From Eledone cirrhosa (taxonomy: Eukaryota), in NCBI GenBank assembly GCA_964016885.1, contig OZ024761.1, positions 7,068,001-7,132,000 on the forward strand: a stretch of DNA of 64,000 nucleotides, in the 5' to 3' direction. A model generated the notes under the pieces. The model searched no databases. It was not told the origin of the DNA and saw nothing but the letters and a program-made list of their open reading frames with translations. The position numbers and the translations under genes were made by a program. This document shows, piece after piece, positions 9,449 to 64,000 of the stretch (its first letter is position 1; every line of letters begins with the position of its first letter).

Positions 9449-10592
9449 CCCTTTAGCATTTATATTACTCTATTTCTACCTGAATTTGCGACCGACAGAT
9501 AGTATTAGCAATTGGAAAGACCAATGGAAACATTGTTTCCTCGGTCTGATTTGACGAGCTCCACCCCACTCGTGAAGCAAGGATCTTGTCGATTGACTGT
9601 CGAGATTACTCTATATTTACTGTTGTATTTTCACGGTAAAGGCTCTACCTCACATAACATCTACATTACTCTATATTTACTGTTGTATTTTCACGGTAAA
9701 GGCTTTATCTCACATAACATCTACATTACTCTATATATACTATTGTATTTTCACGGTAAAGGCTTTACCTCACATAACATCTACATTACTCTATATTTAC
9801 TGTTGTATTTTCACGGTAAAGGCTTTACCTCACATAACATCTACATTACTCTATATTTACTGTTGTATTTTCACGGTAAAGTCTTTATCTCACATAACAT
9901 CTACATTACTCTATATTTACTGTTGTATTTTCACGGTAAAGTCTTTATCTCACATAACATCTACATTACTCTATATTTACTGTTGTATTTTCACGGTAAA
10001 GGCTTTACCTCACATAACATCTACATTACTCTATATTTACTGTTGTATTTTCACGGTAAAGTCTTTACCTCACATTACTCTATATTTACTGTTGTATTTT
10101 CACGGTAAAGGCTTTATCTCACATAACATCTACATTACTCTATATTTACTGTTGTATTTTCACGGTAAAGGCTTTACCTCACATAACATCTACATTACTC
10201 TATATTTACTGTTGTATTTTCACGGTAAAGGCTTTATCTCACATAACATCTACATTACTCTATATTTACTGTTGTATTTTCACGGTAAAGGCTTTACCTC
10301 ACATAACATCTATATTACTCTATATTTACTGTTGTATTTTCACGGTAAAGGCTTTACCTCACATAACACCTACATTACTCTATATTTACTGTTGTATTTT
10401 CACGGCAAAGGCTTTATCTCACATAACATCTACATTACTCTATATTTACTGTTGTATTTTCACGGTAAAGGCTTTATCTCACATAGTATCGAATCTATGA
10501 GATTTTGTTATTTATTTTGAGAACAATACCTTAACATCAGTATGCGTGGCCAGTTACAGCTGGTTTGAACAGAAAGATATGGCTGGTTTATA
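9449..10592 (+). mobile_element. piggyBac-like MITE containing a 60-bp minisatellite (9605-10484, ~14.5 copies)
   Basis: ttaa|ccctttagcattta left end at 9445; body after the array matches copies ending taaatgctaaaggg|ttaa; right end decayed here. Confidence 0.75.
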
Positions 10593-15197: not shown

Positions 15198-15722
15198 GTA
15201 ATCTGAGTTTTTCGAATATTAATAATAACATTCGATTCGTTTGCAATTATGCAAACAAACCTCAATTTTATAGCCATGTCAGTAGAATGAACCCTTCATT
15301 CTTGTTCTTGTGTTGGCATGGAAATAGAACTGCAGACACTAATGTTTCTGGGTATCACCCTTCATCAGTACAGCTCACTGTTCATCTGCCAAACTGTCAG
15401 AGCTAGTGAAAATATATACTATTTTCAAAAATACACAGTGACTGATCGGCCTGATTTGCATATTAGCAGACTGGCTGATCAGTCAGATCTGTATATTAGC
15501 AGATCCACTGATCAACCAGATTTCCATATCAACAGACTGACTGATCAGGCCAATCAGTCACTGTGTATATCAGGGTATATGAGGGTATTACATGGCCGCG
15601 AGTGGCGTGGGGGTGGGGCAAAATGTTTGAGAACCTCTGGGTTAAATGGAAATATGGAGGGTGGAGGGGTGAGTTAGTTGAAATCCCTGTTTAACTATCT
15701 TCTATATTATATTGTTGGGCAG

Positions 15723-16700: not shown

Positions 16701-17833
16701 CTCTTTACATTACTCTATATATACTATTGTATTTTCACAGTAAAGGCTTTACCTCACATAACATCTCACATAACATTTACATTACTCTATATATACTATT
16801 GTATTTTCACAGTAAAGACTTTACCTCACATAATATCTCACATACCATTTACATTACTCTATATATACTATTGTATTTTCACAGTAAAGGCTTTACCTCA
16901 CATAATATCTCACATACCATTTACATTACTCTATATATACTATTTTATTTTCACAGTAAAGGCTTTACCTCACATAACATTTACATTACTCTATATATAC
17001 TATTTTATTTTCACAGTAAAGGCTTTACCTCACATATCTCACATACCATTTACATTACTCTATATATACTATTGTATTTTCACAGTAAAGGCTTTACCTC
17101 ACATAACATTTACATTACTCTATATATACTATTTTATTTTCACAGTAAAGGCTTTACCTCACATAATATCTCACATAACATTTACATTACTCTATATATA
17201 CTATTTTATTTTCACAGTAAAGGCTTTACCTCACATAATATCTCACATAATATTTACATTACTCTATATATACTATTGTATTTTCACAGTAAAGGCTTTA
17301 CCTCACATAACATTTACATTACTCTATATATACTATTTTATTTTCACAGTAAAGGCTTTACCTCACATAATATCTCACATACCATTTACATTACTCTATA
17401 TATACTATTTTATTTTCACAGTAAAGGCTTTACCTTACATAACATTTACATTACTCTATATATACTATTTTATTTTCACAGTAAAGGCTTTACCTCACAT
17501 AACATTTACATTACTCTATATATACTATTTTATTTTCACAGTAAAGGCTTTACCTCACATATCTCACATACCATTTACATTACTCTATATATACTATTGT
17601 ATTTTCACAGTAAAGGCTTTACCTCACATAACATTTACATTACTCTATATATACTATTGTATTTTCACAGTAAAGGCTTTACCTCACATAATATCTCACA
17701 TAATATCAAATCTATGAGATTTTAATATTATTTATTTTGAGAACAATACCTTAACATCGATATGAGCGGCCGATTACGACTGGTTTGAAGAGAAAGAGGT
17801 GAGAGAATTCTGGCTGGTTTAAATGCTAAAGGG
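16701..17833 (+). mobile_element. piggyBac-like MITE with internal 60/72-bp minisatellite (16707-17703)
   Basis: TTAA at 16697-16700 and 17834-17837; right TIR taaatgctaaaggg. Confidence 0.8.
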
Positions 17834-21006: not shown

Positions 21007-22362
21007 GTTAGTTACTTCCTCCCTCACACTCATCCCTCTCTAATCCTCCTCTCTCTCTCTCTCCTCCCTCTCTCTTACTCTTTCCTCCTCCCCTTCCCCT
21101 CTCTCTTTCCTCCTCCCCTTCCCCTCACTCTTTCCTCCTCCCATTCCCCCCTCTCTCTCCCCCCATTCCCCCCTCTCTCTCCCTCTCTTTCCTCCTCTCC
21201 CTCTCTCTCTCTCACTCTTTCCTCCTCTCTCTCTCTTTCACTCTTTCCTTCCTCCCCTCCCCTTCCCCCTCTCCCCCTCTCCCCTCCCCTTCCCCCCTCT
21301 CTGTCTTTCTTCCCTCTCTCTTACTCTTTCCTCCTCCCTCTCCCTCACTTCCCCTCATATATGTGTATCTATATCTCTGTTTACATCTGTCTTAAATTGG
21401 TGTTGTGGTCTACATTATGCCCCTTTATATTCCATAACTTAGCAGTTGGCAAACAAAGATTGATAAAAGGAGTGCCTCCTTATGTGTATGCGTATATATA
21501 TATATATATATATATATAGACATGTCTACATATATCCATTTTAGAGTAGTTACACCGTATCTTTACGGGTCATAAGAGCTGATTAAAAGGGTTGAGGTGA
21601 GGAAGGACATCTGGCTGTAAAACCTTAAAATAGAGCCTATGATGTGGAGGTTATGAAGGGGCTCTCGATTAACCCCTGCTTTAGCCTTTACATTACTCTA
21701 TATATACTATTATATTTTCATGGTAAAGGCTTCATCTCACATAATATTGAATCTGCCTGACTGTAAACCATGTATCATTGCATAGACATGGTTGTTCCAC
21801 GTTTCTCAAAAGGATGATGGAAGTTCCAATCTTTTATATTATATGTAGATATAGATATAGATAATTAATATAAAAGATGTCCGTCAATGTAAAAAAAGGT
21901 CCCTATTCACTCCGTTCACAACACTGTGTATGTTAGATTGACAGACAGGCACACAGACAGATAAACAGCGTGGCGATTGTGGAACGCCACACACATACAC
22001 GCATGGAATCGCGCACACGCACGCAAACTTTCACATGCACACACTCACACATGTTGATAGTTTTACTTTCTGTGGAACGCTGCACGCACGCACACACGCA
22101 TAAACATACGTACATACGCACGCATGTTAATAGTTATTGCTTTCCTTCCCCTCTTATTTCCACACACATCACACACACACATGTCTCTACACTGACACAT
22201 ATAGCGTTCACTCCCTCCCCTCTCACTCCCTCATTGGCATTATGCATATTAATTTCAGTTTGGCGTCGTTGAGGTGGGCGGAGTCATTTGAAACCTATGA
22301 TCCAATGATAATCGAGAATTATGACACACGGAATACTGACGTTGTTCAAATTAATATATAGA

Positions 22363-23801
22363 TATACTATTGTATTTTCATAGTAAAGGCTTTACCTCAC
22401 ATAACATTTACATTACTCTATATATACTATTGTATTTTCATAGTAAAGGCTTTACCTCACATAACATTTACATTACTCTATATATACTATTGTATTTTCA
22501 TAGTAAAGGCTTTACCTCACATAACATTTACATTACTCTATATATACTATTGTATTTTCATAGTAAAGGCTTTACCTCACATAACATTTACATTACTCTA
22601 TATATACTATTGTATTTTCATAGTAAAGGCTTTACCTCACATAACATTTACATTACTCTATATATACTATTGTATTTTCATAGTAAAGGCTTTACCTCAC
22701 ATAACATTTACATTACTCTATATATACTATTGTATTTTCATAGTAAAGGCTTTACCTCACATAACATTTACATTACTCTATATATACTATTGTATTTTCA
22801 TAGTAAAGGCTTTACCTTACATAACATTTACATTACTCTATATATACTATTGTATTTTCATAGTAAAGGCTTTACCTCACATAACATTTACATTACTCTA
22901 TATATACTATTGTATTTTCATAGTAAAGGCTTTACCTCACATGACATTTACATTACTCTATATTTATTAATGTATTTTCATGGTAAAGACTTTACCTCAC
23001 ATAACATTTACATTACTATATATATACTATTGTATTTTCATAGTAAAGGCTTTACCTCACATGACATTTACATTACTCTATATTTATTAATGTATTTTCA
23101 TGGTAAAGACTTTACCTCACATAACATTTACATTACTCTATATATACTATTGTATTTTCATAGTAAAGGCTTTACCTCACATGACATTTACATTACTCTA
23201 TATTTATTAATGTATTTTCATGGTAAAGACTTTACCTCACATAACATTTACATTACTCTATATATACTATTGTATTTTCATAGTAAAGGCTTTACCTCAC
23301 ATGACATTTACATTACTCTATATTTATTAATGTATTTTCATGGTAAAGACTTTACCTCACATAACATTTACATTACTCTATATATACTATTGTATTTTCA
23401 TAGTAAAGGCTTTACCTCACATGACATTTACATTACTCTATATTTATTAATGTATTTTCATAGTAAAGGCTTTACCTCACATGACATTTACATTACTCTA
23501 TATTTATTAATGTATTTTCATGGTAAAGACTTTACCTCACATAATATCTCACATAACATTTACATTACTTTCATCATCATCATCATCATCGTTTAACGTC
23601 CATCTTCCACGCTTGCATTTTCATGGTAAAGACTTTACCTTACATAATTTATCTCACATAATATAAAATCTATGAGGTTTTGATATTATTTATTTTGGGA
23701 ACAATACGTTAACATAATTATGAGCAACTGGTTATGGCCAGTTTAAACAGAAAGAAGTGAGATATTTGTGGCTGGTTATGGGTGGTTTAAATGCCGAAGG
23801 G
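22363..23801 (+). mobile_element. piggyBac-like MITE 3' part with 60-bp minisatellite (22363-23568, ~20 copies); a related left end lies at 21673-21753
   Basis: Right end aaatgccgaaggg|ttaa at 23789-23805; period 60 aligns with the 60-nt lines. Confidence 0.8.
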
Positions 23802-27396: not shown

Positions 27397-27435
<39 letters not shown>

Positions 27436-27447
27436 GTCTGTAAATCA

Positions 27448-27945
27448 CTAACGCCCTCTGGTGATGTCCAGCAGAAGCAAGGGGGGACAACCGTCTATGC
27501 ATTTCAGGCTTAACTGGCCTTCGTCAGGATGATCCGTCCCACCGCTTGCGACTGCTGGACTAGAAGACAGCTGAGAATATATACTTTTCTCATCTATGTA
27601 AATGAGGTGATTAATCTCATTTGCATATGAAGCTGCATAAGTTGGCTCAACTTATAATGAAAAAGAAATAGGATTTCACTTCAAGCATAGCTTTGTACAA
27701 TATGTAGAAATATTTTGTATCTCCAAAGAAATAGTTTTAGGAAGCCATAGCTATGCAAACCCCGGGAGGCTAACTGGCCTTCGCCAGGTCGGTTCCTCGG
27801 GAGGGACCGTCCTGGCGAAGGCCAGTTAAGCCTGAAATGCATCGACGGTTGTCCCCCTTGCTTCTGTTGGGCATCACCAGAGGGCGTTAGCCCCCCTCCG
27901 GTGTTTACAGCTTCCTAAAACTATTTCTTTGGAGATACAAAATAT
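27448..27945. repeat. Nested inverted repeats carrying two opposed hammerhead-like motifs (27492-27531 minus, 27806-27849 plus)
   Basis: 27448-27531 is the inverse of 27806-27890; 27709-27746 is the inverse of 27910-27945. Confidence 0.85.
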
Positions 27946-27975
27946 ATATATATATATATAGTTTTAATATAGATG

Positions 27976-28026
27976 AGATTCTACAGGACTAGAACTGTTT
28001 CATTCATTAGAAATCATCAGGAATCT
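27976..28026 (-). ncRNA. Type I hammerhead ribozyme motif (candidate), same family as the 54.4-55.2 kb array
   Basis: Minus strand: agattc-CTGATGA-tttc taat gaat-GAAA-cag ttctagtc ctg-TA-gaatct; perfect 6-bp stem I, 4-bp stem III. Confidence 0.65.
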
Positions 28027-28151
28027 GGGTATCAAAAAATAAATATGGTATTTATAGGTCTCTACAAGTGGTAGGAGAGGGTGGGGAGTGGGATGGGTGC
28101 AGGTCATTGGTTGATAGAAAAGGGAATTCATTAAAAGCTAATTCTACAAAG

Positions 28152-28615
<464 letters not shown>

Positions 28616-29496: not shown

Positions 29497-29589
29497 GTAT
29501 GTTGTGGCTTTCTTCTCTATCTTCTACATACTATACTATAATAGTTAACATTGTCTTCTACATGCTATACCATATACTATAATAGTTAA

Positions 29590-31305
29590 CATCTACATTA
29601 CTCTATATATACTATTATATTTTCACAGTAAAGGCTTTACCTCACATAATATCTCACATAACATTTACATTACTCTATATATACTATTGTAGTTTCACAG
29701 TAAAGGCTTTACCTCACATAATATCTCACATAACATTTACATTACTCTATATATACTATTTACATTACTCTATATATACTATTATATTTTCACAGTAAAG
29801 GCTTTACCTCACATAATATCTCGCATAACATTTACATTACTCTATATATACTATTGTATTTTCACAGTAAAGGCTTTACCTCACATAATATCTCACATAA
29901 CATTTACATTACTCTATATATACTATTGTATTTTCACAGTAAAGACTTTACCTCACATAATATCTCACATAACATTTACATTACTCTATATATACTATTG
30001 TATTTTCACAGTAAAGACTTTACCTCACATAATATCTCACATAACATTTACATTACTCTATATATACTATTGTATTTTCACAGTAAAGGCTTTACCTCAC
30101 ATAATATCTCACATAACATTTACATTACTCTATATATACTATTGTATTTTCACAGTAAAGACTTTACCTCACATAATATCTCACATAACATTTACATTAC
30201 TCTATATATACTATTGTATTTTCACAGTAAAGGCTTTACCTCACATAATATCTCACATAACATTTACATTACTCTATATATACTATTATATTTTCACAGT
30301 AAAAGCTTTATCTCACATAATATCTCGCATAACATTTACATTATTCTATATATACTATTATATTTTCACAGTAAAGGCTTTACCTCTCATAATATCTCGC
30401 ATAACATTTACATTACTCTATATATACTATTGTATTTTCACAGTAAAGGCTTTACCTCACATAATATCTCACATAACATTTACATTACTCTATATATACT
30501 ATTGTATTTTCACAGTAAAGGCTTTACCTCACATAATATCTCACATAACATTTACATTACTCTATATATACTATTTACATTACTCTATATATACTATTGT
30601 ATTTTCATGGTAAAGGCTTTACCTCACATAATATCTCACATAACATTTACATTGCTCTATATATACTATTGTATTTTCACAGTAAAGGCTTTACCTCATA
30701 ATATCTCTCTTAACATTTACATTACTCTATATATACTATTGTAGTTTCACAGTAAAAGCTTTATCTCACATAATATCTCACATAACATTTACATTACTCT
30801 ATATATACTATTGTATTTTCACAGTAAAGGTTTTACCTCACATAATATCTCACATAACATTTACATTACTCTATATATACTATTTACATTACTCTATATA
30901 TACTATTGTATTTTCATGGTAAAGGCTTTACCTCACATAATATCTCACATAACATTTACATTGCTCTATATATACTATTGTATTTTCACAGTAAAGGCTT
31001 TACCTCATAATATCTCTCTTAACATTTACATTACTCTATATATACTATTGTAGTTTCACAGTAAAAGCTTTATCTCACATAATATCTCACATAACATTTA
31101 CATTACTCTATATATACTATTGTATTTTCACAGTAAAGGCTTTACCTCACATAATATCTCATATAACATTTACATTACTCTATATATACTATTGTATTTT
31201 CATGGTAAAGGATTTACCTCACATAATTATCTCGCATAATATCGAATCTATGATATTTTGATATTATTTATTTTGAGAACAATACCTTAACATCAGTGTG
31301 AGTAG
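29590..31305 (+). repeat. 72-bp minisatellite (29594-31240) expanded inside the same piggyBac-like MITE
   Basis: 24-aa period in ORF track; followed by the MITE body aatatcgaatctatga...gagaacaataccttaacatcag. Confidence 0.9.
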
Positions 31306-51500: not shown

Positions 51501-52838
51501 CTACATAAGACTAAGTGACCAACACATTGACACGAGTGGTCAGTACTACATAAGACTAAATGACCAACACATTGACACAACTAGTGGTCAGTACTACATA
51601 AGACTAAATGACCAACACATTGACACAAGTAGTGGTCAGTACTACATAAGACTAAATAACCAACACATTGACACAAGTAGTGGTCAGTACTACATAAGAC
51701 TAAATGACCAACACATTGACACAACTAGTGGTCAGTACTACATAAGACTAAATGACCAACACATTGACACAACTAGTGGTCAGTACTACATAAGACTAAA
51801 TGACCAACACATTGACACAACTAGTGGTCAGTACTACATAAGACTAAATAACCAACACATTGACACAAGTAGTGGTCAGTACTACATAAGACTAAATGAC
51901 CAACACATTGACACAACTAGTGGTCAGTACTACATAAGACTAAATGACCAACACATTGACACAACTAGTGGTCAGTACTACATAAGACTAAATGACCAAC
52001 ACATTGACACAACTAGTGGTCAGTACTATATAAGACTAAATGACCAACACATTGACACAACTAGTGGTCAGTACTACATAAGACTAAGTGACCAACACAT
52101 TGACACAACTAGTGGTCAGTACTATATAAGACTAAATGACCAACACATTGACACAACTAGTGGTCAGTACTATATAAGACTAAATGACCAACAGATTGAC
52201 ACAACTAGTGGTCAGTACTACATAAGACTAAGTGACCAACACATTGACACAACTAGTGGTCAGTACTACATAAGACTAAATGACCAACACATTGACACAA
52301 CTAGTGGTGAGTACTACATAAGACTAAGTGACCGACACATTGACACAACTAGTGGTCAGTACTACATAAGACTAAGTGACCGACACATTGACACAACTAG
52401 TGGTCAGTACTACATAAGACTAAATGACCAACACATTGACACAACTAGTGGTTAGTACTACATAAGACTAAGTGACCAACACATTGACACTAGTGGTCAG
52501 TACTACATAAGACTAAATGACCAACACATTGACACAACTAGTGGTTAGTACTACATAAGACTAAGTGACCAACACATTGACACTAGTGGTCAGTACTACA
52601 TAAGACTAAATGACCAACACATTGACACAACTAGTGGTTAGTACTACATAAGACTAAGTGACCAACACATTGACACTAGTGGTCAGTACTACATAAGACT
52701 AAATGACCAACACATTGACACAACTAGTGGTCAGTACTACATAAGACTAAGTGACCAACACATTGACACAACTAGTGGTCAGTACTACATAAGACTAAAT
52801 GACCAACACATTGACACAACTAGTGGTCAGTACTACAT
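45517..52838. repeat. 48-bp satellite (attgacacaactagtggtcagtactacataagactaaatgaccaacac), ~150 copies, with 2816-bp higher-order duplication
   Basis: 16-aa period in ORF track; identical spurious ORFs recur at offset 2816. Confidence 0.97.
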
Positions 52839-52924
52839 GGATGGTTGGCCAGTTGGAAGGATGGTTGCTAAGAAAGTATTAGATTGTGGCTAATCAGTTT
52901 GTTAAAAATTAATTAGTTAATTAA

Positions 52925-53398
52925 CCCATTACAATTTACATTATTCTATATATACTATAGAGTGTCTTGCTCAAGGACATAATGCATTGCCCAGTCTGGA
53001 ATCGAACTCACAACCTCACTGTTGTGAATCCAATTCTCTAACCACTCAGCCACGTGCCTTCACGTTGCTACTTCTGCCTGGATTTGCAACCAATAGATAG
53101 TATTAGCAATTGGCAAGGCCAATGGAAACACTGTTTCCTCGGTCCAATTTGACGATCTCCACCCCACTCGTTAAGCGAATGAGGTCTGGGGATCTTGTTG
53201 ATTGACTGTCGATATATACTATTGTATTTTTGTGGTAAAGGCTTTATTTTACATAATATCGAATCTAGGAGATTTTGATGTTATTTATTTTGAGAACAAT
53301 ACCTAAACATCAGTATGGGCAGCCACTTACAACCAGTTTGAACAGAAAGAGATAAGAGAGAATTCACACCAGATACGGCCGGTTTAAATGCTTGAGGG
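52925..53398 (+). mobile_element. Unexpanded piggyBac-like MITE interrupted by a minus-strand SINE head and a ~145-bp dispersed repeat
   Basis: ttaa|cccattacaattta ... taaatgcttgaggg|ttaa; single copy of the 60-bp unit. Confidence 0.75.
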
Positions 53399-54001
53399 TT
53401 AAAGATATATCCTTATCTTGTTACTCTGTCAGTATGTGGGATATTCACAGATTTGTCGCCACATGTGGCCAAAAAGGAGTCATATGAGGAAGCCAAAATA
53501 ATAATTGTTTCTACTTTTGGCACAAGGCCAGCAATCACCCAGTACATTACTGGTACTTTATTTTATCGACCCCGTAAGGATGAAAGGCAAAGTTACCTGG
53601 GAAGCCAAAATAATAATATAAGTATTTTTTAAAATACTGATTATATGATTGTGACGGGTCATAATAATAATTGTTTCTACTTTAGGCACAAGGCCAGCAA
53701 TTACTCCAGTGTATTACTGGTACTTTATTTTATCGACCCCCGTAAGGATGAAAGACAAAGTTTACCTCAGCAGGATTTGAACTCAAACCATAAAGGGCCG
53801 TAACTCTATGCTGCACAGCATGGCGTCCAACCCTCTCCCAATGCTGCCAATCCACAGTTCATAATAATGTGTGCCAGTCTTCTCTCAGCAAATTGCAGCT
53901 TTGGTGGAGGGGGAAGGATTTTTTTTTCTCTGTACATCTTATGTGTATATATGTATCTGTGTGTGTGTGTGTGTATGTCTGTATGTAAGTATATATATGT
54001 A

Positions 54002-54046
<45 letters not shown>

Positions 54047-54423
54047 CTGTATGTGAGTATATATATATGTATCTGTGTGTGTGTGTGTGTGTCTGTATGT
54101 GAGTATATGTATCTGTGTGTGTATGTCTGTATGTGAGTATATATCTGTGTGTGTGTATGTATGTCTGTATGTGAGTATATATATGTATCTGTGTGTGTGT
54201 GTGTATGTATGTCTGTATGTGAGTATATATATGTATCTGTGTGTGTGTGTGTGTATGTATGTATGTCTGTATGTGAGTATATATATGTATCTGTGTGTGT
54301 GTGTGTATGTATGTCTGTATGTGAGTATATATAATATATATATATATATGTGTATGTGTGTGAGTCCCAAGTTCAATCAAGGGTAACCACAGTAAGTAAG
54401 GTACTCAATTCATTAGTAGAGTG

Positions 54424-55156
54424 TATATAACAAATTTAATTTAGAAATGGCTTCTACAGGACTAGAGCTGTTTCATTCAAAAGGAATCATTGCTTTCCTG
54501 ATGATTTCCTTCAAATGAAACAGTTCTAGTGCTGTAGAAGCCATTTCTATTAAATTTGTTATATATATATAACAAATTTAATATAGAAATGGCTTCTACA
54601 GGACTAGAGCTGTTTCATTCAAAAGGAATCATTGCTTTCCTGATGATTTCCTTCAAATGAAACAGTTCTAGTCCTGTAGAAGCCATTTCTATTAAATTTG
54701 TTATATATGTAACAAATTTAATTTAGAAATGGCTTCTACAGGACTAGAGCTGTTTCATTCAAAAGGAATCATTGCTTTCCTGATGATTTCCTTCAAATGA
54801 AACAGTTCTAGTCCTGTAGAAGCCATTTCTATTAAATTTGTTATATATATATAACAAATTTAATATAGAAATGGCTTCTACAGGACTAGAGCTGTTTCAT
54901 TCAAAAGGAATCATTGCTTTCCTGATGATTTCCTTCAAATGAAACAGTTCTAGTGCTGTAGAAGCCATTTCTATTAAATTTGTTATATATATATAACAAA
55001 TTTAATATAGAAATGGCTTCTACAGGACTAGAGCTGTTTCATTCAAAAGGAATCATTGCTTTCCTGATGATTTCCTTCGAATGAAACAGTTCTAGTGCTG
55101 TAGAAGCCATTTCTATTAAATTTGTTATATATATATAACAAATTTAATATAGAAAT
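54424..55156 (+). repeat. Tandem array of five 140-142-bp palindromic units, each with a hammerhead core on the + strand
   Basis: Units start at 54429, 54571, 54711, 54853, 54995 (partial 55137); each has CTGATGA-12 nt-GAAAcag...ctgTA. Confidence 0.9.
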
Positions 55157-55430
55157 ATCATTGTCATTTTAATGTCCACTGCTAGTGTTGGGTCAATATA
55201 GACCAAGTTAGTACTGAAGCGGAGCAAATGATCTCCCAGGCAGGCCAGGGATCTGTGTACTGTTCCATCGAGTGCTCTGGAGAGGTTGTCATGCCTTTGA
55301 CACAACTGAAGGGTCCGCCCAAACCCCTTTGTTTATCTGTGTGTGTATATGTAAAATATATTATTACTGAGGCTTAGATATGTTGAATAATAGCCATACT
55401 AGTAAAATCTCATCTAATATATATGTTATA

Positions 55431-55468
<38 letters not shown>

Positions 55469-55473
<5 letters not shown>

Positions 55474-55701
55474 CAAGGACAATTTGTTAAGCCTTCATTA
55501 CGTTTATTGATTGGTAACGCATGTTTAACTATTGATCAGCACAAGGTTTGATCTGTATCGATCTGGCCTGACTCTGGAATCAAGAGCTCGTCAGACCTCT
55601 GCTGTTGTAATGACAGAATGGTTCATTGAGCAGATTAATAGTAAAACGCGCGTCACCAATCAATAAACATAATGAAGGCTTAACAAACCATCCTTGTATT
55701 A
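55469..55701. repeat. Fold-back element, ~75-80-bp imperfect arms, next to (TA)n
   Basis: taatacaagga..tttgttaagccttcatta.gtttattgattggt / accaatcaataaac.taatgaaggcttaacaaa..tccttgtatta. Confidence 0.85.
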
Positions 55702-55848
55702 TTATACTACACTCAGTCTAGCTCTACACCTCGCTACAGACGTGAGCCTAAACATTGAGTGCTCACCTGGGTGAAGAACCTACAGTAACTTCAGGTTACA
55801 CTTCCTGTATATATATATATATGTGTGTGTATATACATATATATGTGG

Positions 55849-55892
<44 letters not shown>

Positions 55893-56000
55893 AACTCGCG
55901 TATAACTTTTATACATATTTCCTATAGTCTTTTATATATGTATCTATGTATAATAGGCACACTCACACAAACACATATATGTACATATGGGGGGGGGGGG

Positions 56001-56240
56001 GGGCACGTGCCATAGTGGTAAGGGTGTTGCACTTACAATCATAATGTTGGGGGTTCAATTGCTGGGCTGGGTTGTGTGTTTTGTTCTTGAGCAAAACACT
56101 TTATTTCATGTTGCTCCAGTATACTCAGCTGAAAATGAGTACCCCCAGCAATAGCGGGGAGTATAACCCTGCAATGGACGGGAATTCTGACCATGGGGGA
56201 GTCTTGTCCTCTCAGTCGCTCTGGAATAAAACCCCGGCCA
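56001..56240 (+). mobile_element. Diverged tRNA/CORE SINE
   Basis: ggcacgtgccatagtggtaag, ggttcaatt, ttcttgagcaaaacactttatttc. Confidence 0.75.
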
Positions 56241-56795
56241 GGTTTTAGTCATGTCAACATACACACAGACACTCCCTTACTCCTCACCCTCCTTACCTTA
56301 GTTATTTCAATCTTATTCTGGTGTTTCTCTCTCTCCTCCCACCAGCCCTTCTTAGGGATATCAATTTAACCAAGGTACAGAAATCTATTAATGATCGAAT
56401 AACAATAAAAATAATGTATTTTTCTATTGTTGTTTCTTTCTTTTTTTATTTATTTTATCAACGATTGTCATGTTTAGTGTTGTCAACCCCACCACAAACG
56501 ATGTTTGTTAGATATAAACAAACTCTGTATATACTATTATACAATTTTCATGGTAAACACTACCTCAAATAAATCTCACATAACGTTGAATCTAGATTTT
56601 GAAATTATTTATTTTAAGAACAATACCTTAACAGCAGATGAGTGGCCAGTTAGAGCTGGGAGAATTCTGGCCACATTGGTTGGACGTGTTGTCACATTAC
56701 ATCGAAAATCCCAAACCACATAAATTTAAAAATCCCAAAATCCGAAAATCAAAAATTCAAGAATCCAAAAATACAAATGTGAGGAATTTAGCTTC

Positions 56796-58042
56796 CAAGA
56801 TGGCGTCCACCAGGGCTCTGTCGTTAATCCACTACAAGATGGCGTCCACCAGGGCTCTGTCGTTAATCCACTACAAGATGGCGTCCACCAGGGCTCTGTC
56901 GTTAATCCACTACAAGATGGCGTCCACCAGGGCTCTGTCGTTAATCCACTACAAGATGGCGTCCACCAGGGCTCTGTCGTTAATCCACTACAAGATGGCG
57001 TCCACCAGGGCTCTGTCGTTAATCCACTACAAGATGGCGTCCACCAGGGCTCTGTCGTTAATCCACTACAAGATGGCGTCCACCAGGGCTCTGTCGTTAA
57101 TCCACTACAAGATGGCGTCCACCAGGGCTCTGTCGTTAATCCACTACAAGATGGCGTCCACCAGGGCTCTGTCGTTAATCCACTACAAGATGGCGTCCAC
57201 CAGGGCTCTGTCGTTAATCCACTACAAGATGGCGTCCACCAGGGCTCTGTCGTTAATCCACTACAAGATGGCGTCCACCAGGGCTCTGTCGTTAATCCAC
57301 TACAAGATGGCGTCCACCAGGGCTCTGTCGTTAATCCACTACAAGATGGCGTCCACCAGGGCTCTGTCGTTAATCCACTACAAGATGGCGTCCACCAGGG
57401 CTCTGTCGTTAATCCACTACAAGATGGCGTCCACCAGGGCTCTGTCGTTAATCCACTACAAGATGGCGTCCACCAGGGCTCTGTCGTTAATCCACTACAA
57501 GATGGCGTCCACCAGGGCTCTGTCGTTAATCCACTACAAGATGGCGTCCACCAGGGCTCTGTCGTTAATCCACTACAAGATGGCGTCCACCAGGGCTCTG
57601 TCGTTAATCCACTACAAGATGGCGTCCACCAGGGCTCTGTCGTTAATCCACTACAAGATGGCGTCCACCAGGGCTCTGTCGTTAATCCACTACAAGATGG
57701 CGTCCACCAGGGCTCTGTCGTTAATCCACTACAAGATGGCGTCCACCAGGGCTCTGTCGTTAATCCACTACAAGATGGCGTCCACCAGGGCTCTGTCGTT
57801 AATCCACTACAAGATGGCGTCCACCAGGGCTCTGTCGTTAATCCACTACAAGATGGCGTCCACCAGGGCTCTGTCGTTAATCCACTACAAGATGGCGTCC
57901 ACCAGGGCTCTGTCGTTAATCCACTACAAGATGGCGTCCACCAGGGCTCTGTCGTTAATCCACTACAAGATGGCGTCCACCAGGGCTCTGTCGTTAATCC
58001 ACTACAAGATGGCGTCCACCAGGGCTCTGTCGTTAATCCACT
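56796..58042 (+). repeat. Perfect 39-bp tandem array, 32 copies, within an RTE LINE RT fragment (~56775-58290)
   Basis: Unit caagatggcgtccaccagggctctgtcgttaatccacta; flanks read EEFSF-QDGVHQGSVVNPL-IFNIGLQAIM; downstream KGVGRNSILCSKYKLCVHKRCS. Confidence 0.95.
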
Positions 58043-59734: not shown

Positions 59735-61546
59735 TTGCTTTTCAGTTTGCTAAATGGACTACAGAATTTGGAGAGTGAACAATCTGAACACTCAATGATG
59801 ATGTCAAAGATAAAGATAAATTCACCTCCTGTTGCTGGACGAGAATGCAAGGACTCCTCTTTATTTCAGACACGGACGGCTAACATAACCCCATCTCCCT
59901 CACCCCTCCCTACGCCTCCAACCCATCCCTTCCACCCACCCAACGAAACCCAAAGCTTCAGAGTTGGTACCATGAATGTAGGCACTTTAAAAGGTCGTTC
60001 AAATGAGGTTGTAGAGATGCTTCAACGTAAGGAGGTTGATGTTTATTGTATTCAAGAGACTAGGTGGAGGGGTGGGTCTGCTAGATTCATTGTGGGTAAA
60101 AAACAATGTTATAAACTTTTCTGGGTGGGAAATGACAATGGGCTGGGTGGAGTAGGAATTATGTTAGCAGAAAAATGGGTAGATAGGATAGTTGCTGTAA
60201 ATAGAGTGAATGACAGAATAATTAAAATAAGACTAGTTCTAAATAGAACAACTGTGATAATAATATCTGCTTATGCACCTCAATCTTGTCTACCTGACGT
60301 TATAAAAGACAGATTCTATGAGTCGCTAATGCTCACTACCTCCCAAATAACTGACAGTGACTACATAATTATTGCCGGCGACGGAATCCATGGAGGCTAT
60401 GGGTTTGGTACTAGAAATGAGGAAGGCTTCAGAATCCTGGAATTCTGTGACGCTAAAAGCCTAACTATCTGTAACACAAACTTCAAAAAATGAGACAATC
60501 ACTTGATCACCTATAGATCAGGGGAACATGCCAGCCAGAAGACGTGACAGAGTGTCTGTTGTAAACACTAAATCCCTTCCCCATGAAGAATGCACCTCCC
60601 AACATAGCCTCATAGTCAGGATTAGACGTACTCAACAACAGAGGAGGGCTACCCCGTGGAGAATATGGAAGTTAAAGGACGAAATAGCCAGTAACAAATT
60701 TAAAAGTATATTGATGCTTTTAACAGTAAGGAAGAGCAATTAGAGACGTACAATACAGTGGGAATTCCTGAAAGTTAACCTGCTGAAGGCGACAGATGAA
60801 ATTTGTGGCTGGAACAGACCTATAGGCAGGAGGAGAGTAACTTGGTGGAGGAGTCAAAAAGCAGGCTTGCAAAGTATGGGGGAAGTAGAGAACACTATCA
60901 AGTGGCCAGGAGAGAAGCTAGGACATAAGTGTACTTTGCAAGAAGGGAAGCAGAGGATAGAAAGTTCAAGCATGTTCTACAACGTGAGGTGTTCAGGATG
61001 GCAAGGAAAACTGATATTGTCGGGGAGAAGTGTGTCCGTAATGATAATGGTGTACTTGCCATCACTGATGCTGATAAGAAGGTAGCTTGGAAGTGTCACT
61101 GCAAGAGACTACTAAATGAGGAGAATAAATGGAAAAATTCCAAATCGATCCAATAGAGGGACCAGCAGTGCAAGTTAAAGGTAGTATAATAAGTAAGGCA
61201 ATCAAAGATATGAAGACAGGCAAGGCAGCTGGGCCTTTGGAGATAGTTGCTGAAATGCTGAAAGCATCTGGAATGGTGGGACACACTATGGTCACCCAGA
61301 TAGTAAACCAGAATGGGTCATACCAAATGATTGGCGTAGCAGCATCATTAACTGTTACAAGGGTAAAGGAGATGCTCTATATGGGGGCATTAAGTTAGTT
61401 GACCAGGTCATGAAAGTCACAGAAAGAGTTATAGCGCAACTAATCAGAGAGCGAATTGATCTAGTTGAAATGCAGTTGGGTTTGTGTCAGGTAAAAGTAC
61501 CACAGATGCTCTTTTCCTTGTACAACAACTACTGGAGAAGTACCTA
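59735..61546 (+). pseudogene. RTE-clade LINE: APE endonuclease and N-terminal RT, disrupted and 3'-truncated
   Basis: VGTMNVGTL, CIQETRWRG, ISAYAPQ, IIAGD, GYGFGTRNEEG, CNTNFKK; MKTGKAAGP, GKSTTDALF. Confidence 0.92.
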
Positions 61547-64000
61547 TTAGATTGATACATATACCACAGTTGGGTCTTCCGCATTTTTTTACTGGGGGTT
61601 GGCTGAACTTTGGCTTGTGTAATGATGTTTTTTATTGATTTAGGTTGTCTTTTGCTCTTTATGATATTGTGTGTTTGGAAGATTTGGTTCATTCTTAGGT
61701 CTCTTTTTAGTAAAAGTATGTTCTGGAGGATGGTGTTGAATGCCTCAATGTTGAGGGGGTTGTGTGTGGAGATGTATGGTAGAGTTTTCAGTTTTGAATC
61801 ATTCCTTGGTTTGGGGTGTCTAAGTTCCTGGATGTTGAGTTTTAGGGCACGTTGGAATCCATTGTTGATTAGAGATGGTAGGTAATTCCTGCTAATAAGT
61901 GTGTTCTTTAATTCTTCTAGTTGTATGTAGCATGTGTATTTATCAGATACTATTGTGCAGATCCTTTTGTAGGGAATGCTCATTTTGGTGTGTCTAGGGT
62001 GGCATGAGTTGAATGGAAGATGCTGTTTGGAGTCTGTGGGTTTATAGTATATGTCTGTTTCTATTTTGTCGTTGGTTTTCTTGATAAGAATGTCGAGAAA
62101 AGGAAGTTGTTCGTGGCTGTATTCCATTGTAAATTGAATGTTTGTGTTGAGTCCATTTAGAAGTGTTTTAAATTCAATAAGTCTTTCTATACTTTCATGC
62201 CAGAGGATGAAGCAATCATCCAGATTTCTCTTCCAGTTTTTTTCTATGTGGAGGTAGAAGGGGTTTCCATATTTATCTAGTACTTTTCGGTAGAGGGTGA
62301 TTTCCAAGTATCCCATAACCAGGTTGACATTAGAGGGGGGTGTTTTCATGCCCATGTCAGTCCCAGATTTCTGTCTGTAGAATTTGGCATCGAATTCGAA
62401 GTAGTTATTCTCCAAGATGAATTTAAACCCTTCTATTACAAATTCTTTTATGATTCAGTGTGGGAGTTCATTTGGGGTAATTTTCTAACTAGAATTGGAT
62501 TGCCTCTATTCCTAGGTTGTGTGGGATATTGGAATATAGGTTGGCTACATCGAAAGACACTAGTAGGGTATATTCATTATTAAGTGTTTTGGGGAGGTGG
62601 TTGAGCATATCCAGGTCATCCCTTATGTAGCTTTTAATGTGTTTCAGGAATGGTTTTAACAAGATATCTAAGACGTTGCTGAGGTGGTGGGTTTCACAAG
62701 CGGGACCTGCTATTATAGGCCTTAATTTGAGGTCGTTGGGTGAGGGGACATTGATGAATATGTCTGTAGCTTCCTTGCATGCCTTACTTATTTTTTTGAT
62801 TTTGTGTATCTTAGGGATACCATAGAAAAGCTGGGTTTGCTTTTGAAGTCAGTGATATAGTTGTATTCCTTGTCGGTAAGTCGTTCTCTGTAAAGGGTTG
62901 TTAGAGTTTTTAGGTTTCTCATTATGTTCTGTTGGCTGTAGTGTTGAGCCTTTTCGTAGTATGTTTCATCTTCTAAAGATGAGAGTACTAGGGTTGTATA
63001 ATATTCTGTTTCCATAAGGACTACCACACTCCCTTTATCCGCCTCTTTGATTGTTATAGTTTTCTCTCTCTCTCTATTTAAGGCGGGTAAAATTCCCGAG
63101 ATCCATGGACGAGTTCTCTCCAGCGGTCTCTGTCCCTCATTATCGCTGCCATAGTTTTATCATTCTTTAAATTGTTAAACTCATCCCATTCTTTCTCGTT
63201 GGTGTCTGGCTTATATTTATGCCTGTGTAGGTGTTGATATCGGTAATTTGTAATGTTTTCAGAATTGGTCAAAGAATTTGTTCTTACCTTTTGATGGGGT
63301 GTAGTTGCTTCTGTTTCTAGCCAGTGAGTCGTCCTTATTGTACTTGTCGTGTAGTTCCTCGCTAAGTCTTAGTTTTCTACAAAATTCCGTAATGTCCTCC
63401 TTCATTTCGGACTAGTTTGGACGTGGGGGGTGGTGGTGTAAATTTCAGCCCTTTTGGAGAGTATGTTGATTTGGTCTATTGTTAGTTCTTTAGTGGCTAA
63501 ATTTATTACTTTTGGTCTCTCCTGTATGTCTTGTGTCATCTTGTTTCCCTGTGATTAAGGTAGTTGTGATGGTTGTTGATGTTAGGTTGTCTCCTGTGGT
63601 TGTATTGTTCCCTGCTGTTGTTATTGAAGGTTTGGGTTCGTGGATGTGGGTTGATTAGGGCGTCCCTATATTTAGTGTGTGGTTGTGTGTCCTTATATAT
63701 CATGTATGGTAGTTGTATTTTAGGGGCCCTTCGTTGCTGAATATATCAAGTGGTTTGGGTTTGTTGTGTGTGGTGGTTGGGGAGGTTGTAAGAGTGGAGG
63801 TTTCCATCGTATCTCCTAATGGGAGAGAGGCTGTATTGTCCATCCTGTAGGTGTTGTTTTCTTATTTCTTTGTGTGTTGCAGGGGTGTCCACGTAGTTGC
63901 TGCATGGTTGGGGTAAGGGTAAGGTGTTCCCTTCTTTTTTAGTAGGAGGGGGGGGTGTGTTTTTTTGTTGGTTGTTGAACAATGTTTGAATGGTGTTTAG
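61547..64000 (-). mobile_element. Penelope-like retroelement, disrupted; truncated before the GIY-YIG domain, continues beyond window
   Basis: KGLKFTP, IKEADKG, RPIIAGP, LVSFDVANLYSNIPH, NYFEFD..YRQKSGTDMG, WKRNLDDCF, QFTME..LPFLD, IYYKPTD..SCHPRHTK; Cys motif KCGRPNCGIC at ~61555-61590. Confidence 0.9.
63064..63150 (-). mobile_element. 87-bp LINE (RTE-like) 3' tip inserted in the Penelope ORF
   Basis: 8-bp TSD atagtttt (63056-63063, 63151-63158); encodes MRDRDRWRELV..* plus (ag)n tail. Confidence 0.8.

Follow-up and report, generated by a model that had tools for sequence, protein, structure and literature searches.

A tandem array of self-complementary hammerhead units in Eledone cirrhosa, probably Penelope-like terminal-repeat ends duplicated in place

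A 64,000-nucleotide stretch of Eledone cirrhosa contig OZ024761.1 (hereafter, the window) contains five tandem palindromic units (54424..55137, no strand assigned; delimited by TRF, arm alignment and folding), each composed of two oppositely oriented arms joined head to head and connected tail to tail with the next unit via short TA runs. Each right arm carries a complete type I hammerhead ribozyme motif. The array belongs to a dispersed, high-copy family in which head-to-head joints recur and the ribozyme is structurally conserved. The explanation we consider probable is that the array originated from one head-to-head pair of Penelope-like terminal-repeat ends, presumably inserted next to a (TA)n/(TG)n target and subsequently duplicated in situ via TATA runs, with its hammerheads predicted to be blocked.

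TRF analysis of the window identified a repeat at 54424-55156 with a period of 142, 5.2 copies and 97% matches. Unit lengths are, in order, 142, 140, 142, 142 and 142 bp; after the fifth unit comes a sixth left arm truncated to 25 bp (55132..55156, minus strand), which was assigned to the left-arm type by arm comparison. Unit 1 folds into a single hairpin of -80.5 kcal/mol (z -16.6), and none of 200 shuffles was equally stable. The first-pass annotation, which had been made from the letters of the window, reported five near-identical, self-complementary units of 140-142 bp at this location, and both the TRF period and the hairpin energy bear this out. Selection for an RNA-level rod was considered as well; given that the two strands have about equal fold energies (-80.5 vs -75 kcal/mol), there is no clear strand bias.

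The left arm, located at 54424..54491 (minus strand) in unit 1 and recurring in every unit, is an inverted hammerhead module that is truncated within the core, so that AUGA is kept and CUG is absent. It had been described as an antisense copy without the CUG, which is accurate, with the addition that this copy is old: the left and right arms differ by 6 substitutions and a 2-nt indel across 68 columns, and the left arm is accordingly no fresh mirror of the right one. Between units, only 3 sites and one junction vary. Because the arms differ at 6 sites plus the indel and the units only at 3, the palindrome is older than the array. Two of the variable sites show all four possible combinations among the five units, that is, the units are mosaic; such a pattern needs recombination, conversion or recurrent mutation and, as far as the variants can tell, points to DNA exchange between units.

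The structure reaches about 60 bp to the left of 54424, the start given at first pass. This additional segment (54363..54423, minus strand), found at the left end only, was matched by eye to contigs of the family and appears to be an inverted element tail of about 60 bp. We assign it to the family because the loose end past the inverted arm of a metatranscriptome contig (run X11, see below) agrees by eye with the reverse complement of the array's left flank in 22 of 25 columns; the start of the same tail is also found in the loose-end consensus of RAD reads (X14). Considering that the tail-bearing first left arm is of the same type as the other left arms, this arm belongs to the repeat. The tail is adjoined by a (TA)/(TG)-type microsatellite with a 48-bp compound repeat (53946..54362, no strand assigned), which is the likely insertion target by analogy with the insertions described in the accessible text of PMC8557442. 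The right end of the array has no tail, and no target duplication was seen in the flanks, so that a deletion or truncation must be assumed there. The 7 bases that follow 55156 repeat the left arm's inner end together with the initial stem I base, a match that suggests a deletion junction. Further to the right, the flank at 55190-55320 represents a different dispersed repeat, in an old copy to which numerous diverged contigs from two genomic runs (X1 and X4) aligned.

The five hammerheads are all on the plus strand, at 54492..54542, 54634..54684, 54774..54824, 54916..54966 and 55058..55108 in units 1 to 5, respectively, with CTGATGA starting at 54498, 54640, 54780, 54922 and 55064, and N17 at 54536, 54678, 54818, 54960 and 55102. 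The core elements CUGANGA, GAAA and NUH occur in type I order in 5/5 units and in a solitary copy of the module elsewhere in the window. For unit 1, a type I hammerhead with a GUA cleavage site after 54536 had been proposed, and the descriptor agrees, as it does in all five units. As for chance occurrence, a loose version of the motif was found in 9 of 20,000 shuffled units, and the descriptor had 6 matches in the real window compared to 2 in all across 20 shuffled windows; the sixth match in the window is on the minus strand, at 28020-27982. Unit 5 is the sole unit with an intact stem II. Units 1 to 4 each contain a C-A mismatch in this stem: a C-G pair is broken by an A at a position for which a G is indicated by unit 5, by the solitary copy and by the left arm.

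Helix III consists of 4 bp and an 8-nt quasi-palindromic loop and is centred on CUAG. Because of this helix, the array hammerhead is not “minimal” in the sense in which the available portion of PMC4209133 uses the term; the earlier assignment to the Penelope/retrozyme kind of hammerheads stands, whereas the qualifier “minimal” does not. Helix III pairs better between two copies than within one (self-duplex, -12.8/-16.8 kcal/mol, vs hairpin, -1.4/-3.9 kcal/mol), and for dimer-type hammerhead motifs, helix III pairing between copies is expected, as stated in the part of PMC4209133 that covers them. The modeling suggests that, in ordinary dispersed copies, the ribozyme would likely work as a dimer via the quasi-palindromic helix III. 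The canonical G10.1-C11.1 pair is absent and is replaced by U-U in all six copies (five units and the solitary copy), a feature that had been listed as a caveat at first pass. The caveat has published precedent in natural hammerheads: U-U at the base of stem II is described as a natural variant (PMC3088659, available text), and the axolotl retrozyme HHR_Amex2, which has a U-U at its helix II base, shows 22% cleavage as a monomer, is more efficient as a dimer, and gives rise to circles (PMC7229834, available text). This U-U does not represent decay in the array family. Rfam did not corroborate the motif, with no hammerhead model detected at E<=10 in 52000-58000, 27400-28160 or 55050-55120; in a sensitivity control, a type III hammerhead with U-U from locus L002 was likewise missed at E<=1. 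The sub-threshold Rfam matches, mostly of microRNA models to the hairpin, were dismissed as generic.

The solitary, non-palindromic relative is located between two (TA)n tracts (27961..28152, minus strand) and contains a hammerhead at 28026-27976 with a 6-bp stem I. It has no inverted arm, is preceded by CCAAT- and TATA-like words and, judging from this organization, is likely a solo terminal repeat. Comparison of the solitary copy with the array shows that the core and stems II and III are kept, the stem II loop is changed, and stem I contains compensatory changes on both sides in 2/6 pairs (4 rows that represent two independent lineages only). Stem covariation among genomic copies, the absence of which had been listed at first pass among the refuting observations, is therefore found in stem I, at a level that 29 of 500 shuffles also reach. 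Among the 40 of 95 rows listed, all 6 variants inside 55058-55108 are in loops (loop II, 55075-55078, and loop III, 55097). The location of the five variant sites within the 12 loop bases of the 51 has p = 3e-4, a value weakened by the unlisted rows and by alignment clipping. The solitary-type stem I was also recovered in the loose-end consensus of 1,278 (5' side) and 780 (3' side) X14 reads. Taken as a sequence family, the hammerhead of the array is real and structurally conserved.

The right arm of unit 5 together with its flank (55040-55330) was used as the query against four sequencing runs: X1 and X4 (genomic contigs from organisms A and B, respectively), X11 (metatranscriptome) and X14 (RAD reads). 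Among six runs with a 0.06 share, X11 was the one included, and the 16 candidate runs listed comprised no RNA run under the species name of the best match. Matches were obtained for 10,518 of 16.5 million contigs in X1, 10,160 of 17.6 million contigs in X4 and 8,320 of 12.5 million reads in X14, counts that include the second repeat in the flank. The summed depth, which does not equal copy number, peaked on the ribozyme: in X1, it reached 1.3 million at 55080-55099, compared to 73,000 for the repeat in the flank, and dropped to about 70 at 55160-55189; beyond the TA run, depth was below 1% of the peak in both X1 and X4. Loose ends are mixed on both sides of the arm in X1, X4 and X14; hence, the hammerhead module is dispersed. 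None of the pieces listed from these runs spans the array or links it to its right flank. The family patterns matched 0 loci in viral and prokaryote contig collections, which are not expected to contain an animal element, and a word-index search yielded one unrelated match for the 142-bp unit (3/31 words) and none for the solitary copy.

Head-to-head joints were found repeatedly among the 15 of 44 joint rows listed: 55058 is joined to 55059, 55063 or 55067 in 5+8+1 = 14 contigs of X1 and in 11+17+5 = 33 contigs of X4, and 55061 is joined to 55062 in 2 contigs of X4. The array locus matches the 55067-type joint. Because 47 of the 49 X1 and X4 contigs with listed arm joints have one side of the joint starting at the initial stem I base, the edge of the ribozyme may set the point where the elements turn around; the fixed 55058 breakpoint could partly reflect the query, in which the bases to the left of 55058 are left-arm sequence. 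Joins of the right arm-TA-left arm type and alternating arrangements are also present at other loci (X1 pieces 2-5 and X4 pieces 10-11), with joints that lead from 55143-55160 back to 55058-55071 and with left-arm lengths different from those in the array. The metatranscriptome contributed one contig (depth 2.4), which contains a single head-to-head unit and is possibly derived from DNA.

Among known elements, the array most closely recalls the insertion anatomy of Penelope-like elements, for which the accessible portions of PMC8557442 and PMC3846280 describe inverted truncated copies, an optional tail at one end, and microsatellite or AT-rich targets. In the array, an inverted truncated copy is head to head with a direct copy, and the tail is present at one end only (about 60 bp here vs the 30-40 bp given in the available text of PMC8557442). 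The array lies beside the microsatellite at 53946-54362, and the solitary copy lies between its two (TA)n tracts. Under the proposed scenario, an inverted truncated copy with a tail and a direct copy with the hammerhead would have produced the head-to-head pair; this palindrome would have formed once, from two different copies of the family, and would have been repeated afterwards, with the TA runs at both unit ends possibly serving as a simple handle for slippage or unequal exchange. The right end, with its truncated sixth left arm and the 7-base match, would then be the product of an apparent deletion. As a counterpoint, the alternating multimers at other loci could move as units. The array is most likely a tidy by-product of a Penelope-type insertion.

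With the pseudo-LTR ends of endonuclease-bearing Penelope-like elements (PMC4209133, PMC8557442 and PMC3846280, in the parts available), the array family further shares the type I hammerhead within a terminal module that is short, a dispersed distribution with copies in the thousands, most of them single, nearby pairs on opposite strands, microsatellite neighbors, and a palindromic helix III suited to dimers. Compared with the ends described there, the array family has no linked ORF, its helix III, with 4 bp and an 8-nt loop, exceeds that of minimal motifs in length, it contains U-U in place of the usual G10.1-C11.1, and the head-to-head pair is itself repeated five times. No reverse transcriptase ORF linked to the family was found in the 64-kb window or in the viral and prokaryote collections. 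The window does contain a decayed Penelope-like reverse transcriptase ORF in several pieces (61444-63580, minus strand), the 3' end of which is cut off by a LINE fragment. Its best named relatives are from Octopus vulgaris (63% identity), Argonauta hians and Octopus bimaculoides, and many of its relatives carry RVT_1 and GIY-YIG; 0 of 3 ORF pieces had a Pfam match, and the ORF has no hammerhead in common with the array family.

Each hammerhead of the array is predicted to be blocked by the adjacent antisense arm. The left arm precedes the ribozyme in the transcript, and because the inner part of this arm pairs with the core, the core is not expected to be free. In terms of secondary structure alone, that is, ignoring tertiary contacts and proteins, the hammerhead fold would cost +39 to +52 kcal/mol while the transcript is growing and, in circular monomers, +51 to +58 kcal/mol. 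By comparison, the cost would be +4 kcal/mol for either the solitary copy or an isolated unit 5 arm, and about +8 kcal/mol for an isolated unit 1 arm. For a transcript that starts just inside an arm, the cost would be +7.5 to +10 kcal/mol until the next left arm, about 50 bases later. The competition between the long hairpin and the ribozyme fold that was anticipated at first pass is thus pronounced (a predicted penalty of +39 to +58 kcal/mol for adopting the active fold). Conversely, the release of ~142-nt monomers from a transcript, which had been inferred in the same annotation, is disfavored by this cost wherever the left arm is present and by the stem II mismatch in units 1 to 4. A read-through transcript of the array would likely form a long double-stranded hairpin rather than serve as a source of monomers.

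These predictions bear directly on the reading of the array as an active retrozyme, in which plus-strand multimers would self-cleave, the 142-nt monomers would circularize as rods, and the array would be rolling-circle cDNA. The working definition of a non-LTR retrozyme in bioRxiv 10.64898/2026.07.22.740005 (available text), namely, an uninterrupted series of at least two tandem units, all of which contain a complete type I motif, describes the array, which has five such units. Cut-to-cut monomers are also predicted to fold as rods, with 120-122 of the 140-142 nt paired; the axolotl U-U hammerhead cleaves and yields circles; and circles of plant retrozymes and viroids carry blocked ribozymes (PMC7229834, for both, in its available text). 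However, the antisense arm of the array is made before the ribozyme and would pair with the emerging core, the stem II pair is broken in units 1 to 4, most animal retrozyme circles are predicted to have a free ribozyme (PMC7229834, available text), and 8 of 9 predicted frog dimers failed to cleave (bioRxiv 10.64898/2026.07.22.740005, available text). Furthermore, the tail is on the strand without the intact core, a polarity that appears unfit for priming and copying from a plus-strand circle, and together with the mosaic units this speaks against the rolling-circle origin previously put forward. On balance, we regard an active retrozyme as quite unlikely, and the array is not filed as one because activity would require a ribozyme free to fold, whereas the ribozyme here is predicted to be blocked. 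Under a very unlikely variant, the 142-bp unit is itself a mobile RNA, a rod of the ribozyme and its antisense that would be cut in a transient or dimer fold, circularized, kept from recutting by the antisense arm as in viroids, and copied back by Penelope enzymes. Animal retrozyme circles reported in the accessible parts of PMC7229834 and bioRxiv 10.64898/2026.07.22.740005 span ~170-400 nt; should a circle of the array unit exist, it would amount to a viroid-like rod in an animal, built solely from a ribozyme and its antisense.

An unlikely alternative that does not depend on ribozyme cutting is that the multimer was retroposed whole: read-through transcription of a source array would have yielded a minus-strand RNA with the tail at its end, and Penelope enzymes would have copied this RNA into the microsatellite, with 5' truncation at the right end. 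The precise end of the tail at the left microsatellite, the truncated unit on the right and the alternating arrangements at other loci all fit this course of events, and terminal repeats can mobilize intervening sequence in trans, according to the part of PMC3846280 that is available. Such retroposition, however, requires a source array and only shifts the question of duplication elsewhere; moreover, the 7-base match at the right end resembles a deletion, and left-arm lengths differ at the other alternating loci. Inflation or distortion of the copy number by assembly of the palindrome, at a locus that is itself real, is highly improbable: the window is very satellite-rich, and none of the listed contigs or reads spans the array or connects it to the right flank, but the arms differ at fixed sites in all units, unlike in a read fold-back, the units have distinct combinations of variants, and right arm-TA-left arm joins are found in independent runs. 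A tandemly amplified MITE or foldback DNA transposon with TA ends, in which the hammerhead would be incidental, is suggested by the short, palindromic, non-coding unit, its TA ends and the absence of an Rfam hammerhead match. This possibility is extremely unlikely and largely refuted already, given that the family consists mostly of single arms (in X1 and X4, depth past the TA run is below 1% of the maximum), an inverted repeat is absent from the solitary copy, the head-to-head joined forms are a small minority, the stems covary and the loops vary; Rfam also missed a clean type III motif with U-U. Local duplication of a pair of Penelope-like ends is hence the reading that we adopt.

Animal non-LTR retrozymes resemble the array in their short, AT-rich tandem units with a type I hammerhead each and in their proposed origin from Penelope terminal repeats (PMC7229834; bioRxiv 10.64898/2026.07.22.740005), and the axolotl HHR_Amex2 shares the U-U at the base of helix II (PMC7229834). 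In the available text of the preprint, Penelope ends are argued to be the source of such arrays, with local amplification as a possible route. In contrast to the retrozymes covered in the accessible portions of these sources, the array unit (140-142 bp) is shorter than the reported circles and consists almost entirely of a ribozyme and its own antisense, with the ribozyme predicted to be blocked. Viroids and the circles of plant LTR retrozymes have in common with the array a rod-like predicted fold and a complementary strand that blocks the ribozyme (PMC7229834, available text). As far as they are described there, they differ in that the array hammerhead is type I, not type III, and is present on one strand only, the array has no LTR or primer site, and its rod comes from a genomic inverted copy. 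Full-text searches of openly accessible papers revealed neither an octopod hammerhead family nor hammerhead units repeated head to head in tandem, and a search for U-U variants by position number yielded 0 papers. The gain is a high-copy family of U-U hammerheads that Rfam misses. The array also implies that counting tandem hammerheads as active retrozymes can take in self-blocked arrays.

Hammerhead motifs are common in the window, considering that a relaxed descriptor detected 11 of them compared to a mean of 0.1 across 30 shuffles. A second hammerhead family, of the minimal type with a palindromic helix III, has copies in 27710-27945 and 27448-27540: the one at 27812 (plus strand), with a changed core, is inside a MITE-like head-to-head palindrome (27710-27945) with 36-bp perfect ends, and the core at 27527 (minus strand) is intact. 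A TA run links this palindrome, whose head-to-head arrangement favors the Penelope-type reading of the array, to the solitary member of the array family. Three additional hammerhead-like motifs, from other families, are located at 15368 (minus strand; stem I of 8 bp, stem II of 4 bp and a palindromic helix III), 25256 (minus strand) and 24258 (plus strand).

In other collections, a core-plus-stem II pattern matched 4 metagenome and 4 viral loci, none of which is like the array element outside the pattern. Three of the 4 metagenome loci are complete type III hammerheads with a 7-bp stem I (1-5 of 5,000 shuffles each); another locus, L004, was rejected as not being a hammerhead. Compact type III hammerheads with a U-U-based stem II are located at L001 4001-4026, L002 209-234 and L003 4001-4026, among the metagenome and viral contigs, and L005-L008 are the same stretch as L003.

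The window is also rich in satellites. One 60/72-bp satellite family occupies four places (9605-10485, 16704-17703, 22362-23544 and 29587-31239), and the region at 56796-58042 consists of 32 copies of a 39-bp unit with 100% matches that is open in three frames, either a very young satellite or an assembly effect.
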